A DNA stretch of 64,000 nt from a phage: sequence record PZ445437.1. One strand, 5' to 3'. Below the pieces are notes generated by a model. The model saw only the letters and a list, made by a program, of their open reading frames with translations, was not told the DNA's origin and did no database searches. Positions within the stretch are counted from its first letter, which is position 1, and the number at the start of each line of letters is the position of its first letter. Positions 1,808 to 16,842 of this stretch are shown piece by piece. The position numbers and the translations under genes were made by a program.

Positions 1808-2197
1808 TTAACGATTAAAATCAGCTGCGATTGTTTCGGCAACAATTTGAGCAGCAACAATCAGACGTTCATCTGCATTACCGCAATAATCATCTTCAAG
1901 GCGTTCACCGCATGAAGTCATAATAAATTTAGCACCGGCGTTTAGGGATTCTGTAGTATGTTTGCGCATTAGTTCAATCCATTTATTACTTACTTCACGA
2001 TCGATAGCTTCATAATACGCATGACGAGCAGGTGCAGATTTAATTTTGTTCTGAATAACTTCCATCGCGTTATCAGAAAGAGACAAAACCCACGCTCGAC
2101 GAATTTTATTTTGGTTTTGTGGATTTGATTCAGAACGCACATGTTTTGGCTGAATATCTTTTACATCAACAGTATAATTCACAGTAATTTTAGTCAT
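1808..2197 (-). CDS. rpbA: RNA polymerase binding protein RpbA
   Basis: 129 aa ORF immediately upstream of gene 45, the T4 position and length of RpbA. Confidence 0.75.
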
Positions 2198-2206
2198 AAT
2201 ACACCT

Positions 2207-2395
2207 TTAGTCATAATAATCAGTAACAGTCCAAGCTTCATTTCTATTGGACATTATTTTTGTATATTCTGCTTTAAATGCATTCTTAAGCATAGATTCA
2301 GTAACTATATGCTCTTCATTAGAAAAATTATTTCTCAGAATATATCGTTTTATTTCAGGAATAGTTAATAGATGCTGTCCAGTTGAATATTCCAT
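2207..2395 (-). CDS. hypothetical protein (position of T4 45.2)
   Basis: 62 aa ORF between 46 and rpbA, same strand. Confidence 0.45.
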   Translation of the reverse strand: MEYSTGQHLLTIPEIKRYILRNNFSNEEHIVTESMLKNAFKAEYTKIMSNRNEAWTVTDYYD

Positions 2396-2450
2396 GTTTT
2401 TCCTCCATAGAGATTATACTCTAATAAATTAAAGCATAATCTCTTATAAA

Positions 2451-4133
2451 TTAAACCATTACAGTAAATCGACCAACTTTCTTCATTTGAAGATGCTGAC
2501 CGTATGCTTGCGGGTCATGGTCTCTATGCGAAATAACAAAAACGTTAGTATTTTTTAAACTATCTAAAATAGTTGAAATAGCTTTTACACCTTCAACGTC
2601 GGTCGCTGAATCAAAAACTTCGTCAAGAATTAACGTGTTTATTTTAACACCTGAAACTTTTTCAGCAATATCACGCCAAGTAAATAAAAGAGCAATATCA
2701 ATTCGTGCTTTTTCACCTTGACTGAATGAAGCATAACTAAAATCTTCGCGACCACGGGATTTAATTGTCTCATTAAATTCTTCATCTAATGTAAACACAT
2801 AATCCGCTTCCATTATTTTAAGATAATGGTTAATCTGCTTATTAAATAATGGAATGTACTTTTTAATAATAGCACCTTTAATACCAGAATCTTTGAGCAT
2901 ATCAGTCAAAATTCCTCGGTGGTATTTTTCCATTACTAAATTAGTTTTTGTCTTAACAATTTTATCAAGTTCTTCTTGAAGCAGTGCTATTTCATCAGCA
3001 TGGTCAATAAACTCAGAAGATGCTTTTTCTATAGCCGCTTTAACTTTTTTAGCTTTATCTACCGTTGTGATTAGAGATTGTTTTTTATTGCGAATATCAT
3101 TTGCCAACGACTGCTGGGTTTTAATATTATCTCGGTATTCATCAACAAGAACTTTTAAATTATCACGATGCGTTGAAAGCTGTTCAAACGAATGCGTGCA
3201 TTCAGAAACTTTATCTTTAATTTTAGAAACAACTTTATCACCGGAACTCAATTGTGACAAACAGGTTGGACATAATCCACCTTCGTGATACATATTAATG
3301 ACTTTATTATACGAGTCAATTTTTGATTTAATTAAAACTGCTTCTTGACCGATTTTATTAAATGCATCAGTCGGGTCTTCATCCAAAACAATATTAACTA
3401 ATCTTTCGTTAGCTTCTTCTATTTCCGATTTTAGCGTTCTAGCTTCTTTTGCCAAATCATCATACATATTTTGCAGACGAGTAAGGTTGTCACCTGTTAA
3501 TTTTTTCTGGCGTTCAACGTTATCATTATATATTTTAATTTGTTGGATAATACTATCTTTTTTAACATCAAGCACTTGGTTCTGCGAATTTAATTCACGT
3601 ATTAGTGCTTTATTAAGCTTATCCATTTCAGCTAATGTTCCTACCTCAAGCAGGTCTTCCACAAGCTTTCTTCGCGCAGGGGTCGACAAACCCATGAAAG
3701 GGGTATACCCTGCTGTACCAAGGACAACAATCTGCTTGAAACTGGCATATGACATTCCGATAAGCTGTTCAAATTCTGCTTGGAAATCTTTACTGCTGGC
3801 AGATTCATTAAGACGTGTACCGTTAACGGTGATTTCAAAAACGTTCGGTTTTTGTCCTCTTTTGATATAGTACTTTTTCTCATCATATTCCATCCACAGT
3901 TCAACTAAAAGTTCTTTCTTATTTGTGCTGTTTATTAATTGACCTTTCTTTACATCACGGAATGGCTTGCCAAAAAGCCCAAATGTGATGGCTTCTAACA
4001 TAGTAGACTTACCACCGCCATTTCGTCCAGTAATAAGAGTTTTTTGAACCTTATCTAATTGAATGTCAATAGGATTTCCACCTACTGACATTATATTTTG
4101 ATACCTAACTCGGTTTAGTTTAAAATTCTTCAC
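2451..4133 (-). CDS. 46: recombination endonuclease subunit gp46 (Rad50/SbcC-like ATPase)
   Basis: 560 aa; N-terminal Walker A GRNGGGKST, long central coiled coil with CPTC zinc hook, C-terminal signature and Walker B (LILDEVFD). Confidence 0.92.
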   Translation of the reverse strand: MKNFKLNRVRYQNIMSVGGNPIDIQLDKVQKTLITGRNGGGKSTMLEAITFGLFGKPFRDVKKGQLINSTNKKELLVELWMEYDEKKYYIKRGQKPNVFEITVNGTRLNESASSKDFQAEFEQLIGMSYASFKQIVVLGTAGYTPFMGLSTPARRKLVEDLLEVGTLAEMDKLNKALIRELNSQNQVLDVKKDSIIQQIKIYNDNVERQKKLTGDNLTRLQNMYDDLAKEARTLKSEIEEANERLVNIVLDEDPTDAFNKIGQEAVLIKSKIDSYNKVINMYHEGGLCPTCLSQLSSGDKVVSKIKDKVSECTHSFEQLSTHRDNLKVLVDEYRDNIKTQQSLANDIRNKKQSLITTVDKAKKVKAAIEKASSEFIDHADEIALLQEELDKIVKTKTNLVMEKYHRGILTDMLKDSGIKGAIIKKYIPLFNKQINHYLKIMEADYVFTLDEEFNETIKSRGREDFSYASFSQGEKARIDIALLFTWRDIAEKVSGVKINTLILDEVFDSATDVEGVKAISTILDSLKNTNVFVISHRDHDPQAYGQHLQMKKVGRFTVMV

Positions 4134-11273: not shown

Positions 11274-11585
11274 TTATTCTTTAAGTTCGAGTTTTGTTCC
11301 ACGAGAAATAATTCCTTGGTAAGCCCAATAAGGAGGATTAACAGAATCCTCACCAGAGTTTTCTTCAGGAAAATAAACCTGGATAACGAAGCCGGATTCA
11401 TCAAAGGTAAAATAAACCGTAGGCAGTTCACCTAACAAATCGGCACGAGCGTTGATTTCTTCGAGGTCTTGTTCACGTCCAGCCCAGAAGCTTGGGTTCA
11501 GACTACATTCATAGAAATAATAGTCATTACCGAACATATCAAAACCATTCCAACTCTCTACTACATACCGCTCAAAACTAATCAT
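11274..11585 (-). CDS. hypothetical protein
   Basis: 103 aa acidic ORF directly upstream of nrdH. Confidence 0.4.
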   Translation of the reverse strand: MISFERYVVESWNGFDMFGNDYYFYECSLNPSFWAGREQDLEEINARADLLGELPTVYFTFDESGFVIQVYFPEENSGEDSVNPPYWAYQGIISRGTKLELKE

Positions 11586-11587
11586 AA

Positions 11588-11803
11588 TTAATCCTTTTTA
11601 TCAAGAACCGCATTCAGCTTGTTAGTAATTTTATCCAGACGCTCATTGAACTCACTAGAAGATAAGCCCTTTTCTGGAGAAATTAAACTAATCACGAAAA
11701 ATATAGCAATAAAAGGAATAAGGAAAATAGCTCCAACTGCCATAAACAGAAAGAATGTTACAGTTGTAAGAAAATCAGCTAAACCTTTACGAAATTTATA
11801 CAT
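11588..11803 (-). CDS. small membrane protein
   Basis: 71 aa with one long hydrophobic segment (FFLFMAVGAIFLIPFIAIFFVISLI). Confidence 0.4.
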   Translation of the reverse strand: MYKFRKGLADFLTTVTFFLFMAVGAIFLIPFIAIFFVISLISPEKGLSSSEFNERLDKITNKLNAVLDKKD

Positions 11804-11918
11804 ATTTTACCCTTAATTGATTAACCAAGCATTGATAAGCACTAAACTATATTGCGAATAAAATTCTGGACCAAAATGAAAAATCATATCATTTATAGTA
11901 TCCATAATGTAATTCAAT

Positions 11919-12389
11919 TTAATCATGTGTCCACACCCCATCGGTATTTGACCAAAGTCGCTGATTATCTGATCCTCGCCACAGCTTTTTAGTCGGAAGA
12001 TTTTTCTCATACTTCCCATCAATAATAACATCAACATATTTAAGCATTTCTAGTTGTTTAATATCTTCAAACTTATATCCTGTCCACAACCAAATGCTTT
12101 TATTGGGATAAAGATTTTTAATAGTTTGAACCACAGAGTGAATCACGTCTCTGTTATCAGGATAAAGAGGGTCACCTCCGGTTATAGTCAATCCTTCTAT
12201 ATAATCATTATTCAAACATTCAATTAATTGTTCTAGTGTTTCACCAGTGAATGGAACACCATTTCTAGCATTCCATGTTGATTTATTATAACACCCTTCG
12301 CATTTATGCAAACAACCTGTAACGAAAAGAACTGTCCTGCATCCAGGACCATTAACAAAGCAGCACGGGTATATTCTGTCATAATTCAT
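11919..12389 (-). CDS. nrdG: anaerobic ribonucleotide reductase activating protein (radical SAM)
   Basis: 156 aa; radical-SAM CxxxCxxC motif (CLHKCEGC) and N-terminal MNYDRIYPCCFVNGPG. Confidence 0.9.
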   Translation of the reverse strand: MNYDRIYPCCFVNGPGCRTVLFVTGCLHKCEGCYNKSTWNARNGVPFTGETLEQLIECLNNDYIEGLTITGGDPLYPDNRDVIHSVVQTIKNLYPNKSIWLWTGYKFEDIKQLEMLKYVDVIIDGKYEKNLPTKKLWRGSDNQRLWSNTDGVWTHD

Positions 12390-13218
12390 TTATATATTTC
12401 CAATTATAGCCTTCAACACTTTTACGTTCGCCATTTAAACATTTTAAAATATTTCCTTTGCTAGAAATATTAAAATATTTTGCTGCGTCTGGTATATAAT
12501 TAAATGTTTTTAAAAGAACACCATCTTTATATGCGCCAAATAAATTAAGAGTATATTTTTCTCGAAGACGCTGATGTTTCCTTTTCATAACCTCAGGATT
12601 TGCATACGCCAACTTCAATGAATTTCTGTGTTTTTCTTTTACTTCAGGTTTTTGCATTGCTAACTTAGTTAGCCTGGAAATTTTATTTCTAACTTCGTCA
12701 GTTTTCATTGCATTTGACAAATTTAATAAAGTTTTATTTCTAACTTCAGGTTTTTGCATTGCTAGCTTAGTTAGTTCTCTATGTCTTTTTCTAAAATCGT
12801 CATCCTTCCATATATTTTTCGATAATTTTGACATAGAGCGGTGAAATAATTCCTTTTCACTGGAATACAATTTAAAAATTTCATCCAATTCATCCGCATT
12901 AAATCTATCGGTATTCGAGTTTATCATTCTATGAAAGGCATAACACATTTTACTATTGCTTGTTTTAGCTAAATAGTAATGAGCTAACGCATGGTCATAA
13001 TATGACAAATTAACAATATTCCATTTATCTGTTTTATATTCAGGAAATATAGATTTGGGAAGCACGTGATGTGCTTCCGTTTTTCCTTTTATTTTAGGAT
13101 TATTATAATTTTTTGTTATCAAATCAACATATGACAATAGTAAATCATTATTTTCTTCAAATATTAAAGATAATTTATCATTCACAAAATCGCAAGGATA
13201 AAATCTATCATAATTCAT
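12379..13218 (-). CDS. mobD: HNH-family homing endonuclease-like protein MobD
   Basis: 279 aa between nrdG and nrdD; HNH-like EAHHVLPKS...HALAHY; repeated basic motifs; N-terminus MNYDRFYPCDFVN copies the nrdG N-terminus. Confidence 0.75.
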   Translation of the reverse strand: MNYDRFYPCDFVNDKLSLIFEENNDLLLSYVDLITKNYNNPKIKGKTEAHHVLPKSIFPEYKTDKWNIVNLSYYDHALAHYYLAKTSNSKMCYAFHRMINSNTDRFNADELDEIFKLYSSEKELFHRSMSKLSKNIWKDDDFRKRHRELTKLAMQKPEVRNKTLLNLSNAMKTDEVRNKISRLTKLAMQKPEVKEKHRNSLKLAYANPEVMKRKHQRLREKYTLNLFGAYKDGVLLKTFNYIPDAAKYFNISSKGNILKCLNGERKSVEGYNWKYINEL

Positions 13219-15032
13219 TGGTGTTTAACCCTATGCATGATTTCTTTATTTTTACCGAGATTAAATCCGCGTTCGTTCGGATTTCCCAAATAACCACATG
13301 TTCTTCTTATTGTGTTCATCTTTTTAGGATCAGTTTCTCCACAAATAGAACAAACAAATCCGTTTTCAGTAGGAGTCATTTCATGGGTACTTCCACATGT
13401 AAAACATTTATCTACTGGCATATTAACACCAAAATAATCTAAATGTTGTGCAGCATAATCCCATACGGCCTCAAGACCCTTTAAGTTATTTTTCATATCA
13501 GGAAGTTCAACATAAGAAATGTGACCACCTGTCGCAATGAAATGATATGGCGCTTCACGAGAAATCTTTTCAAACGGAGTAATATTTTCTTCTACTGAAA
13601 CGTGGAAACTGTTAGTGTACCAGCCTTTATCGGTAACATCTTTTACACTTCCATATTTTTCTGTATCAAGTTTACAGAAGCGATAACAAAGGTTTTCAGC
13701 AGGAGTAGAATACAAACTAAAAGCAAACCCAGTTCTTTCAGTCCACTGTTTAAGACGAGCATTCATTTTAGTTAAAATTTCTCGTCCAATATCACGACCT
13801 ACAAGAATATTCAATTCGTGAATACCAATGTATCCTAGAGACACTGAACTTCTGCCATTTTTAAATAACTCAATTATATCGTCATCAGGTTTAAGACGAA
13901 CCCCGAATGCACCTTCTTGGTAAAGAATAGGAGCAACAGTTGCTTTAACTCCTTTTAAGGAACTAATTCTACACATCAAAGCTTCAAAACACAAATCCAT
14001 TCGCTCATTGAACAATTCGATAAATTTCTGTTCATTGAACTGTGTTCCAATATAAGAATCTAATGCGATACGAGGAAGATTCAGTGTTACAACACCAAGA
14101 TTATTACGTCCATCAAGAATTTCATTACCAGTCGAATCTTTCCATACGCTCAAGAAACTACGGCAACCCATCGGAGAAACAGGAACAGATGAACCAGTGA
14201 TAGCTTTATTGTTCTTAGCTGAAATAATATCAGGATACATCCTTTTGCTTGCGCACTCTAGAGCAAGCTGTTTAATATCATAGTTCGGATCGTCTTTATA
14301 AAGATTAACACCTTCTTCAACAAACATAACAAGCTTAGGGAAAATAGGAGTTATCCCATCACGACCAAGACCTTTAATACGATTTTTCAGAATTGCTTTC
14401 TGAATCATTCGTTCAGTCCAGTCAGTTCCCGTACCAAATGTAATTGTTACAAAAGGCGTTTGTCCGTTTGAACTAAAGAGAGTATTTACTTCATATTCAT
14501 AAGCTTGGAATGCATCGTATACATCTTTTTCTGTTTTAGATTGAGCATAATTCAGTGCATCGGCGATTTGCCATTTTTCTGCATCCTCAATATGTTTTGC
14601 ATAGGTGCGTTTAACATAAGGAGAAAGTACTTTATCTACATTAGCAAAAGTCGTTCCGCCGTATTGATGGGAAGCAACCTGTGCAGTAATTTGTGCCATA
14701 ATTGCAGTAGCAACTCCAATTGATTTAGGAGTTTCAATCTGCGCATTACCAAGCTTAAATCCGTTCTCAAGCATTCCTTTTAAATCTACTAAACAGCAAT
14801 TAGTAAAAGGCAATGATATACTGTAATCTAAATCATGAAAATGAATTAATCCAACATTATGGGCATTTACAATATGACTTGGAAGAATACGACAAGCGAT
14901 ATGTTTAGAAACAATACCGGCCATTAAATCTCTTTTTGTTGGAAAGACGCGAGAATCTTTGTTGGCGTTTTCTGTATTTAATTCTTTATCTTTATTTGAA
15001 ATAAAATTTAAAACATCTTTTTCTAAAGACAT
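13215..15032 (-). CDS. nrdD: anaerobic ribonucleoside-triphosphate reductase (glycyl radical enzyme)
   Basis: 605 aa continuous ORF; C-terminal zinc ribbon (CFTCGS...CSICG) and glycyl radical motif RTCGYLG. Confidence 0.93.
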   Translation of the reverse strand: MSLEKDVLNFISNKDKELNTENANKDSRVFPTKRDLMAGIVSKHIACRILPSHIVNAHNVGLIHFHDLDYSISLPFTNCCLVDLKGMLENGFKLGNAQIETPKSIGVATAIMAQITAQVASHQYGGTTFANVDKVLSPYVKRTYAKHIEDAEKWQIADALNYAQSKTEKDVYDAFQAYEYEVNTLFSSNGQTPFVTITFGTGTDWTERMIQKAILKNRIKGLGRDGITPIFPKLVMFVEEGVNLYKDDPNYDIKQLALECASKRMYPDIISAKNNKAITGSSVPVSPMGCRSFLSVWKDSTGNEILDGRNNLGVVTLNLPRIALDSYIGTQFNEQKFIELFNERMDLCFEALMCRISSLKGVKATVAPILYQEGAFGVRLKPDDDIIELFKNGRSSVSLGYIGIHELNILVGRDIGREILTKMNARLKQWTERTGFAFSLYSTPAENLCYRFCKLDTEKYGSVKDVTDKGWYTNSFHVSVEENITPFEKISREAPYHFIATGGHISYVELPDMKNNLKGLEAVWDYAAQHLDYFGVNMPVDKCFTCGSTHEMTPTENGFVCSICGETDPKKMNTIRRTCGYLGNPNERGFNLGKNKEIMHRVKHQ

Positions 15033-15844
15033 AATTCTAATTTATCCTTTTGAAATTCTTCGTCTAAATATGGGTTCCAACCCATTTTAAACCTTTTGAT
15101 GAAATTATCAATTCTAAATTTCGGTAAGTTTAAATCCGCAAAAATAGATGATTTACTTTTAAAATCTGGACTTAAATAATCATATAAAATTTCTGCGTAT
15201 TTTAACCATAATATACAAGTACCAGATTTAATTGCTCTCGGAGTTTTCCAAGGTTTTACACCATACATCGGATTTCCGCTTCCTTTATGCCTGATAGAAG
15301 ATGAAATTCCAATTTTAATTTTAGCTTCCTTTGTATGCGAAAATCCACGATGTGGATTTTCTTTCCAGTATTTTTTAGAAGCTTCTGATATTTTCTTTCT
15401 GGCTAAATTAGTATGATGCTTTCCATAAAATCCATGATTTTTGCCTTTATTACGATTTCTTTTAATCATGGTTATTGATTGCTTTTCTCTAGTTTCTTTA
15501 GAAGGAGAAATACCATATGTCGTAAATTTGCCATCAGCATATGCTAAATTAAAATACTCTTTATTCCATACATCTTTTTCTATATTCTTTTGAAATTCAG
15601 CTTCAATGCTAGTTATTTGTTCATCTCCGACTAATTGAAAATATAATATTTCAACTTTCGGCGTTTCTTTCAATAAGGCTTTTTGAAATTCGGAAGATGA
15701 CGAAGACGAATAATAAAATTTACCATTTTTATCAATAATATTCGTTCCATCAAAAGTGCAATTGGTTTTACTTCCAATGTAATAATATGGTGGGGTTTTA
15801 GCATTAATTCTATTAATAAATGATAGTTTATATACTACATTCAT
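15023..15844 (-). CDS. free-standing GIY-YIG homing endonuclease-like protein (Seg-like)
   Basis: 273 aa; N-terminal VYKLSFINRINAKTPPYYYIGSKT (GIY-YIG-type) and NUMOD3-like motifs (GKNHGFYGKHHT, GNPMYGVKP); 3' end overlaps the nrdD start by 10 nt. Confidence 0.65.
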   Translation of the reverse strand: MNVVYKLSFINRINAKTPPYYYIGSKTNCTFDGTNIIDKNGKFYYSSSSSSEFQKALLKETPKVEILYFQLVGDEQITSIEAEFQKNIEKDVWNKEYFNLAYADGKFTTYGISPSKETREKQSITMIKRNRNKGKNHGFYGKHHTNLARKKISEASKKYWKENPHRGFSHTKEAKIKIGISSSIRHKGSGNPMYGVKPWKTPRAIKSGTCILWLKYAEILYDYLSPDFKSKSSIFADLNLPKFRIDNFIKRFKMGWNPYLDEEFQKDKLELCL

Positions 15845-16314
15845 TTTAAACTCTTTCTAAGCTGCTTCTTAAATGAAGCTATTAATTGTGTTTTAGTGTC
15901 AGATTCATTATATTCAAATCCTCTTTGAAGCATCTCAGCCATCATTTCCTCTTTTCCTAAACGAGAAAATTCCTTTGATTTATCTCCAACGAAGTTAGGG
16001 TGAATATTATTTTGGGTGTAATCGGATTTTAAATAAGTAAGTAAATTTTCTAACCATTCAAGATAATCAACTCCTTGTCCCTTTAAGCCAGAACGATTAA
16101 ATTTATGCTTCATTTGACCTTCTGCGGCATTGCAGAGATTACAAAGCAATCCACGTACCTTTCCTGCTTTTGGTCCATTTAATTCATGGTCATGGTCGAG
16201 GTGATTAGCTTGAACATCAGGATTTAGTTCTCGTTGGCAAATTAAGCATTTACCATTTTGTGCATCATAAAATTTCTGTTTTTCTTCTTTATATAATTTG
16301 CCAGTCAATAACAT
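15841..16314 (-). CDS. 49: endonuclease VII (Holliday junction resolvase) gp49
   Basis: 157 aa; MLLTGKLYKEEKQKFYDAQNGKCLICQREL... with CxxC...CxxC zinc site and HLDHDH motif, as recalled for T4 gp49. Confidence 0.9.
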   Translation of the reverse strand: MLLTGKLYKEEKQKFYDAQNGKCLICQRELNPDVQANHLDHDHELNGPKAGKVRGLLCNLCNAAEGQMKHKFNRSGLKGQGVDYLEWLENLLTYLKSDYTQNNIHPNFVGDKSKEFSRLGKEEMMAEMLQRGFEYNESDTKTQLIASFKKQLRKSLK

Positions 16315-16356
16315 AATAAAACCCTTACCTTAAATAGATAAGGGTATTTATTATTT

Positions 16357-16842
16357 TCAAGTATTGTAAAACATTTGATTCAATCGCTTATATTGCCGAA
16401 TCTTTTGGTCAGAAAAAGAAATTTGGGTTTCAAGCCATTCAATATATTCTGCCGCAGCTTGCATCAAATTTCCTTCATAGCCATCGTTATTTTCTTGTGC
16501 AGCTAATTTAGCTAATGCGTATGGAATACGTTCACCTTGAAAATCGGCTTTAGGCTTCTGAACAACTTGATTAGTTCTCTCTACAACTTCTTCAATTTCG
16601 CCATTTTCTACTGATTCAGTATTCCACAAGCACCAATACGTAATTGGCTTATCGTAGATGTTAATAATCTTTCCGTCGGAAAGTTCAATTTCAACAATTC
16701 CAGTATCAGGTTCTATATCATCTTCACATTCTTTTGCAAGTTCACGAACTTTAAAGACAGTACCTGCGCTAAGTTCCGGCCAGTAATTACATAGCCCTGT
16801 ATCAGCACGATTAATTCTAAACCACTTATCTACTGTAATCAT
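16357..16842 (-). CDS. pin: probable Pin (inhibitor of host Lon protease)
   Basis: 161 aa from the internal Met; T4 position (next to 49) and length fit Pin; the sequence itself was not verified. Confidence 0.5.
   Translation of the reverse strand: MITVDKWFRINRADTGLCNYWPELSAGTVFKVRELAKECEDDIEPDTGIVEIELSDGKIINIYDKPITYWCLWNTESVENGEIEEVVERTNQVVQKPKADFQGERIPYALAKLAAQENNDGYEGNLMQAAAEYIEWLETQISFSDQKIRQYKRLNQMFYNT

Follow-up and report, generated by a model that had tools for sequence, protein, structure and literature searches.

A SegG-like GIY-YIG endonuclease gene at the gene 49/nrdD junction of T4-like phages, probably spreading as a cassette together with a replacement 5' end of nrdD

In the T4-like phage of sequence record PZ445437.1, an open reading frame (ORF) of 273 amino acids lies between gene 49, which encodes endonuclease VII, and nrdD. 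The locus was analysed within a stretch of 64,000 nt (the window), to whose whole length all coordinates refer. It raises the question of what this ORF encodes, whether it takes the place of the group I intron with I-TevII that interrupts nrdD in relatives such as T4 and phage PST, and how it could have entered a pair of translationally coupled genes. According to the explanation that is considered clearly the most probable one, the ORF encodes a free-standing GIY-YIG homing endonuclease of the Seg family, similar to SegG, which would spread as a cassette of 1,033 nt at the gene 49/nrdD junction. This explanation is carried by the family and fold of the protein, the boundaries of the cassette, its linkage to nrdD, the near-identity of copies across genera, and the decayed copies, deletion scar and displaced remnant found in other phages, each of which is demonstrated by the comparisons given below.

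The 5.3 kb surrounding the ORF are 95-98% identical to Tequatrovirus genomes, with gene 49, the endonuclease ORF, nrdD, mobC and nrdG following one another on the minus strand. A first-pass annotation, made without database searches, had described nrdD as one uninterrupted ORF of 605 amino acids and had placed the 273-amino acid ORF immediately upstream, overlapping the nrdD start by 10 nt. ORF table and sequence agree with this description; the stop codon TAG of the endonuclease gene (15025..15023) lies inside nrdD, whose ATG occupies 15032..15030, giving an overlap of exactly 10 nt. At the other end, the ATG of the endonuclease gene (15844..15842) and the TGA of gene 49 (15843..15841) overlap as ATGA. 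The I-TevII intron, which in phage PST is positioned after nt 538 of nrdD, had been declared absent and is so indeed, the empty site of the window being located between 14495 and 14494. The further suggestion that the endonuclease is present instead of the intron had to be abandoned. Phage G8 holds this endonuclease gene plus the I-TevII intron, and in the carriers fPS-2, Manna, F26, and Lv5cm, nrdD is annotated as split; therefore, the endonuclease is no stand-in for the intron, and two independent elements are involved.

Extent of the mobile unit

Comparison of phages with and without the endonuclease gene defines both edges of the inserted segment. The left edge is exact, since endonuclease-plus and endonuclease-minus sequences part directly after ATGA; the right edge is found at nt 225/226 of nrdD in every copy. 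Between 12 endonuclease-plus and 8 endonuclease-minus sequences there are 70 fixed differences, all of them within nt 4-225 of nrdD and none beyond, and past nt 225 polymorphism is shared between the two groups. The first 240 nt of nrdD in the window are 55-77% identical to those of all endonuclease-less relatives included here, with identity rising to at least 95% from nt 241. On the other side, phages of both genera concerned, Tequatrovirus and Mosigvirus, have almost the same sequence over the final ~100 nt of gene 49, whether the endonuclease is present or not. Nothing at the locus is linked to the endonuclease gene except the 5' end of nrdD. By these boundaries the putative mobile unit is shown to exceed the ORF; it is a cassette of 1,033 nt inserted exactly at the gene 49/nrdD junction. 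In the Mosigvirus carriers, the endonuclease gene is 97-99% and the first 240 nt of nrdD are 95-98% identical to the window, while gene 49 reaches only ~81% identity. Over the cassette as a whole, identity is 95-100% in carriers of the two genera.

The cassette-type 5' haplotype of nrdD is confined to the 48 endonuclease-bearing records and phage OLB35, which retains a scar of the element. A donor of this foreign 5' end was not found, as no endonuclease-less phage carries it and the best unrelated match, in the Klebsiella KP27 group, is ~75% identical. Endonuclease-less phages of several genera share the conserved NrdD N-terminus MTIE.EI.GLI..TNKDLLNENANKD..FPTQRD, which in cassette copies is replaced by ELNTENANKD, with FPTKRD standing in place of FPTQRD. 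Judged from this alignment, it is plausible that the conserved N-terminus of the endonuclease-less phages represents the target. The candidate cleavage interval, as inferred from the boundaries, would extend from the end of gene 49 to nt 225 of nrdD of the T4-type allele, and the sharp and constant boundary at that position leaves a short interval in which to seek the cleavage site. The population footprint, i.e., a constant linked tract with free recombination beyond, is consistent with unidirectional inheritance and co-conversion of flanking markers.

Protein family, distribution and decay

The first-pass annotation had assigned the ORF to the GIY-YIG/NUMOD3 proteins, which is corroborated by several independent matches. 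The protein is matched by PHROG 7504, "homing endonuclease", at E 2.4e-34. T4 SegG is 40% identical over residues 1-128 with a pairwise E of 4e-27, in agreement with tblastn, and NUMOD3 (PF07460) covers residues 130-153 with 29.7 bits against a curated cut-off of 20.4 (E 6.2e-7); a second NUMOD3-like repeat at about residues 165-185 is seen in the homologue alignment. In I-TevI, the characteristic residues of the GIY-YIG superfamily are Y6, Y17, E75, and N90 together with the catalytic arginine R27. In the present protein, V4-Y5 and Y22-I23-G24 take the GIY and YIG positions, and E81 and N99 those of the Glu and Asn; Y5, Y22, G24, E81, and N99 are invariant across a 28-sequence alignment including PF01541-positive proteins. 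A single-sequence search of the sequences in the Protein Data Bank (PDB) gave no match, but the family profile matched the I-TevI catalytic domain (1LN0) at E 4.4e-7, with residues 1-103 aligned to I-TevI 1-95, and the I-TevI DNA-binding domain (1I3J) at E 4.2e-5. Unrelatedness to GIY-YIG enzymes, which would have spoken against the assignment, is thus contradicted by both the SegG similarity and the 1LN0 profile match. Residues 1-105 are modelled with confidence by AlphaFold2, and this part of the protein has the α/β fold of the GIY-YIG enzymes. By sequence and fold, one motif residue aside, the protein is a member of the GIY-YIG family. Relatives are numerous: a search of 1.84 billion representative proteins yielded 299 with E values of 0.001 or lower.

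Comparison with Seg proteins and with I-TevII had been proposed along with the assignment. Its first half led to SegG as a relative; as to the second half, similarity to I-TevII is undetectable (pairwise E = 1.0), and kinship with this enzyme was rejected. Kinship with MobC was likewise rejected, as there is no similarity.

The C-terminal region has weak tblastn similarity to the C-termini of homing endonucleases of Vi1-like phages, e.g., F-LimV, and its motif GWNPYLD-EFQK is conserved in the homologues P0002 and P0004. Residues 186-273 are presumed to form a target-specific DNA-binding module. A paralogue of 273 amino acids, P0003, with 56% identity over the N-terminal half, was observed between gene 5 and downstream baseplate genes of another T4-like phage (L048, ENA contig ERZ13617658, 5001-5822), which is a segC-type site; the same catalytic domain is therefore recombined with different C-terminal modules at different sites.

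The same gene is present at the gene 49/nrdD junction, and always there, in 48 phage records of both Tequatrovirus and Mosigvirus at 96.7-99.5% identity; phage FL18 is one further record with a truncated copy. With about 690 records matching the locus at an identity of at least 90%, occupancy by the endonuclease is near 7%. Many GenBank and RefSeq records already bear the label "homing endonuclease"; existing annotations mostly read either this or "hypothetical protein", and once, in JK42, "SegG", a label based on similarity only. IMG/VR holds 2 copies of the endonuclease only, and scanning of metagenomes added 1 close copy and no further distant relatives. Among the matches listed in the phage collection, 0 records hold both the endonuclease and mobC, and the best coverage of 11500-16800 is 85%. 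The phage of the window thus appears to be an unsampled recombinant, in which an intronless nrdD is flanked by two unrelated endonuclease genes. The gene has the features of Seg-type elements: it is an ORF of its own between conserved genes, free of intron or intein, which endonuclease-less relatives lack, gene 49 and nrdD being joined there by ATGA, and it is sporadic among close relatives and incongruent with the host genome.

Intact ORFs were found in 12 of the 13 sampled copies. Variable codons, comprising 26 with synonymous changes only and 16 with amino acid changes, are spread over the whole ORF, and the catalytic residues are unchanged; judged from the codons, this pattern is that of purifying selection. 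In Pu-Krd-SF4, a 1-nt insertion cuts the protein to 245 amino acids, and Pu-Krd-SF3 has the same extra base. In OLB35 (L052, MH992122, flagged UNVERIFIED; 2980-3010), the endonuclease gene has gone by an in-frame deletion of 812 nt, and nrdD opens with 22 nt from the endonuclease start (MNVVYKL), to which cassette-type nrdD from nt 23 is joined; the scar proves a former invasion. In FL18 (L063, PP400780, 3497-4988), residues 1-201 of the endonuclease run directly into the C-terminal ~18 residues of NrdD, which means that nrdD has been lost. The fusion is followed by a gene for a SegH-like GIY-YIG protein of 276 amino acids and by nrdG. It was observed that FL18 has retained the activase gene and not the reductase gene. 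From these two genomes, the deletions would show how the element can afterwards alter its target gene or eliminate it.

A metagenomic locus from a distant T4-like phage (L050, Logan SRR27536177 contig, 2188-3180) carries a homologue of 59% identity which is frameshifted into 50 and 222 amino acids. There, gene 49 is followed by 55 codons left over from the 5' end of the resident nrdD, which ATGA joins to the endonuclease homologue, and a complete nrdD with the cassette-type signature ELNTENANKD..FPTKRD comes after the homologue. The 5' end of the target gene is here partly duplicated, with one copy on each side of the element; the arrangement shows that the resident nrdD 5' end is displaced by one that the cassette itself carries in. 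Decayed copies, deletion scar and remnant would fit the complete life cycle of a homing element.

Mode of spread and competing explanations

Likeness to intronless homing had been suggested from the arrangement of the genes. The patchy distribution, the near-identity across genera, the linked nrdD tract, and the decayed copies and scar support a reading of this type. As to expression, the ATGA overlap, by which nrdD is coupled to gene 49 where the endonuclease is lacking, has been taken over by the endonuclease. The start codon of nrdD is located inside the last codons of the endonuclease gene, with AAGGA 12 nt ahead of it in the endonuclease 3' end. Neither a TATAAATA late promoter nor a MotA-box middle promoter was found beside the endonuclease gene, and a scan for sigma-70-type promoters there stayed at the level of shuffled sequences; the "promoter" annotated in phage Lutter was given no weight because it straddles the start codon. 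Hairpins at the endonuclease start codon (z -1.9) and in the nrdD start region (z -2.3) are too weak to be claimed as regulatory. In all, the gene looks like the promoter-less Seg cassettes described in PMC2988022.

The 3' end of the endonuclease gene supplies nrdD with a new start codon and ribosome-binding region, and the foreign first 225 nt (75 codons) of nrdD come next in the cassette. Apparently lacking a promoter of its own, the endonuclease gene would be transcribed along with gene 49. Upon mixed infection, the enzyme would cut the T4-type allele, which is conserved, at some point from the 3' end of gene 49 to about nt 225 of nrdD. The break would be repaired from the endonuclease-bearing genome, with homology arms provided by the conserved gene 49 3' end on the left and by nrdD downstream of nt 225 on the right, and by this repair the whole cassette would be copied in; internal recombination would be impossible in the divergent 5' segment of nrdD. 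Most likely, this segment would also protect the carrier from self-cleavage.

A more specific form of this mechanism, to which an even chance is given, sees the element as a composite cassette for replacing the start of a gene rather than as a bare endonuclease gene. The endonuclease would capture the translational coupling signal of the target gene and carry along a surrogate, cleavage-immune 5' end as well as a new ribosome-binding site for nrdD. The resident 5' end would be displaced; it would persist as the 55-codon remnant in the distant phage and would have been wholly removed in the T4-like lineage. Such a design would explain how translationally coupled operons are entered without being broken. 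As mobC and nrdG are of the same design (see below), this may be a general strategy for invading tightly coupled operons without polar damage.

Several points weigh against homing as the mode of spread or against its details. There is no Pfam match of the protein to PF01541 (GIY-YIG) at E up to 0.1; this miss is uninformative on membership, because T4 SegG, a proven enzyme taken as control, has zero Pfam matches, I-TevII giving a sub-threshold SegE_GIY-YIG match plus NUMOD-type modules. At the position aligned to R27 of I-TevI, no arginine is present in the protein, in SegG, or in other Seg-like homologues, and K26 of the YIGSK motif is conserved instead; with SegG being reported active, the missing arginine probably reflects variation of the subfamily. 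The AlphaFold2 model of the C-terminal half is poor and of low confidence, and with Foldseek I-TevI was matched at E 1.6 and a TM of 0.56 on the target, which is not significant. No paper naming, testing or treating this gene was found in a literature search. From nt 226 on, nrdD is ~95% identical between Mosigvirus and Tequatrovirus even in phages devoid of the element; with nrdD to nrdG so similar across genera, cross-genus exchange is therefore common and not specific to the element. Finally, the target could be the gene 49/nrdD junction itself, in which case the foreign 225 nt would be a hitch-hiking passenger and not the determinant of immunity.

It is unlikely that the endonuclease is stranded and immobile, i.e., that it is inactive, or kept only because nrdD translation now starts within its 3' end and its 5' end provides the link to gene 49, and has been spread by ordinary recombination at a hot locus. 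Exchange of nrdD-nrdG between genera happens anyway, which fits this idea. The ribosome-binding site and start of nrdD inside the ORF would constrain its 3' end; the clean deletion of the ORF in OLB35, by which nrdD was kept, implies, however, that dependence of nrdD cannot force all 273 codons to be kept. An equivalent of R27 is not evident, but active SegG has the same motif pattern. Decayed copies do exist, but 12 of 13 are full length, the synonymous excess extends over the whole ORF, and Y5, Y22, G24, E81, and N99 are intact.

It is quite improbable that the main role of the protein lies in competition between phages or in another non-homing function, such as marker exclusion of co-infecting relatives, segmental amplification, or regulation by DNA binding, with spread being a side effect. 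The Seg enzymes SegF and SegG are known for localized marker exclusion, which would be in favour of such a role, but mechanistically this exclusion is a homing event and thus more of an added consequence than an alternative. Precedents for other functions are I-TevI, which doubles as autorepressor (PMC2988022), and, according to a 2026 report (PMC13096335), SegB, which promotes the amplification of anti-defence loci. An argument against a non-homing role is that, at this locus, linkage to the gene is confined to the nrdD 5' end. In addition, the protein matched none of the PADLOC defence models, and a part in a defence system is unsupported.

A chance ORF or mis-annotation with spurious GIY-YIG similarity, for which the missing PF01541 match and the non-significant Foldseek match might be quoted, is already refuted by the SegG homology (E 4e-27), the 299 relatives, and the persistence of the ORF in intact form, with synonymous excess, across dozens of genomes.

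The nrdD operon and comparison with known systems

The features of the locus are compiled in Table 1.

Table 1. Coordinates of the gene 49-nrdG region in the window
Feature	Position	Strand	Basis or remark
Gene 49, endonuclease VII, 157 aa	15841..16314	-	Pfam Endonuclease_7 and Endonuc-dimeris; left homology arm in the proposed mechanism
Free-standing SegG-like, putative homing endonuclease gene, 273 aa, ATG start	15023..15844	-	ORF table, PHROG, SegG similarity
GIY-YIG catalytic domain, residues 1-105, with Y5, Y22-I-G24, E81, N99	15530..15844	-	
NUMOD3 DNA-binding motif, residues 130-153	15386..15457	-	Pfam PF07460
Endonuclease C-terminal region, residues 186-273	15026..15289	-	Also contains ribosome-binding region and start of nrdD
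nrdD nt 1-225, foreign endonuclease-linked version	14808..15032	-	Right-hand part of the cassette
Mobile unit as inferred, 1,033 nt, comprising the endonuclease gene and the replacement 5' end of nrdD	14808..15840	-	
nrdD, intronless, 605 aa	13215..15032	-	ORF table, Pfam
mobC, HNH-type free-standing endonuclease, 279 aa	12379..13218	-	Between nrdD and nrdG
nrdG	11919..12389	-	

Directly upstream of gene 49, a hairpin with a 10-bp stem and a T-run is found at 16321-16345 on the minus strand, which is terminator-like or regulatory, and AATAAATA is located ahead of it at 16352. Hairpin and AATAAATA may be the counterpart of the control by hairpin and late promoter that is known for gene 49 of T4; should this hold, the timing of the translationally coupled endonuclease would be set as well.

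The nrdD product matches Pfam NRDD over residues 21-604 at E 5e-171 and also contains the Gly_radical domain. Just downstream of the empty intron site, at nt 539-560 of nrdD (window 14494-14540, minus strand), the intronless allele reads GTAAATACTCTCTTT, where the intron-bearing phages G8 and PST have GTGAACACGTTATTC. Such clustered differences resemble the polymorphism to be expected in exons beside a homing site.

Identity between mobC of the window and the mobC annotated in phage PST is 99.9%, and the gene is matched by PHROG 655 and 12434. Its start shares ATGA with the nrdD stop, and its end overlaps the nrdG start by 11 nt. Its own 5' end copies that of nrdG, with 30 identical positions in the first 39 nt; the two proteins start with MNYDRFYPCDFVN and MNYDRIYPCCFVN. 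As far as can be judged from the sequences, the mobC/nrdG arrangement mirrors the remnant and replacement found around the endonuclease homologue of the distant T4-like phage. SegH reportedly occupies the mobC site between nrdD and nrdG, as Sandegren, Nord and Sjoberg are said to have described in 2005. SegH and MobC resemble the present element in that the same operon is invaded by elements of the same build; MobC differs in being an HNH enzyme without similarity to the 273-amino acid protein.

The present gene would be the fourth independent mobile endonuclease at the anaerobic ribonucleotide reductase locus of T4-like phages, after I-TevII, MobC and SegH. In a 2010 review, the gene 49/nrdD site is not among the T4 endonuclease sites listed. 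The public genomes provide a full natural series, with invasion, spread across genera and decay as well as two kinds of loss, the clean loss of the element and the collateral loss of its target gene. The possible composite cassette and its parallel in mobC/nrdG would be the newest aspect; annotation of the gene as homing endonuclease and the underlying biology are already known. The element is a tidy but ordinary case of a well-known kind of mobile element, a well-documented instance without a new principle, by which the understanding of homing endonucleases is left unchanged.

Among the characterised systems, I-TevII has in common with the present enzyme the gene it is associated with, nrdD, the broad superfamily and the NUMOD-type DNA-binding modules. 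It is, however, intron-encoded at nt 538/539 of nrdD, whereas the present gene is free-standing at the nrdD start. I-TevI is even more remote, with 21% identity only, an intron-encoded gene, and an R27 which has no obvious counterpart here. SegF is closer in its mode of spread; Belle, Landthaler and Shub reportedly described it in 2002 as a case of intronless homing. Both SegF and the present element are free-standing GIY-YIG genes which adjoin a conserved gene, with spread being accompanied by replacement of the sequence of this neighbour. Unlike in SegF, the linked tract has a fixed boundary here and is as divergent as that of a different genus.

The closest characterised paralogue is SegG, encoded between genes 59 and 32 of T4, with 40% identity over the whole catalytic domain and the common motif pattern MN(I/V)VY...TPPYYYIGSK.NC.F...EYFNL. 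Both SegG and the present element are promoter-less cassettes between conserved genes of DNA metabolism. In T2, the cleavage site of SegG lies within the adjacent gene 32, and its cutting leads to the co-conversion of markers on either side. The present element differs from it in being located at 49/nrdD and not at 59/32, in its unrelated C-terminal half, its length of 273 instead of 210 amino acids, and its NUMOD3 repeats. By analogy, it is regarded as an uncharacterised member of the Seg family at the gene 49/nrdD junction, which would work like SegF and SegG.

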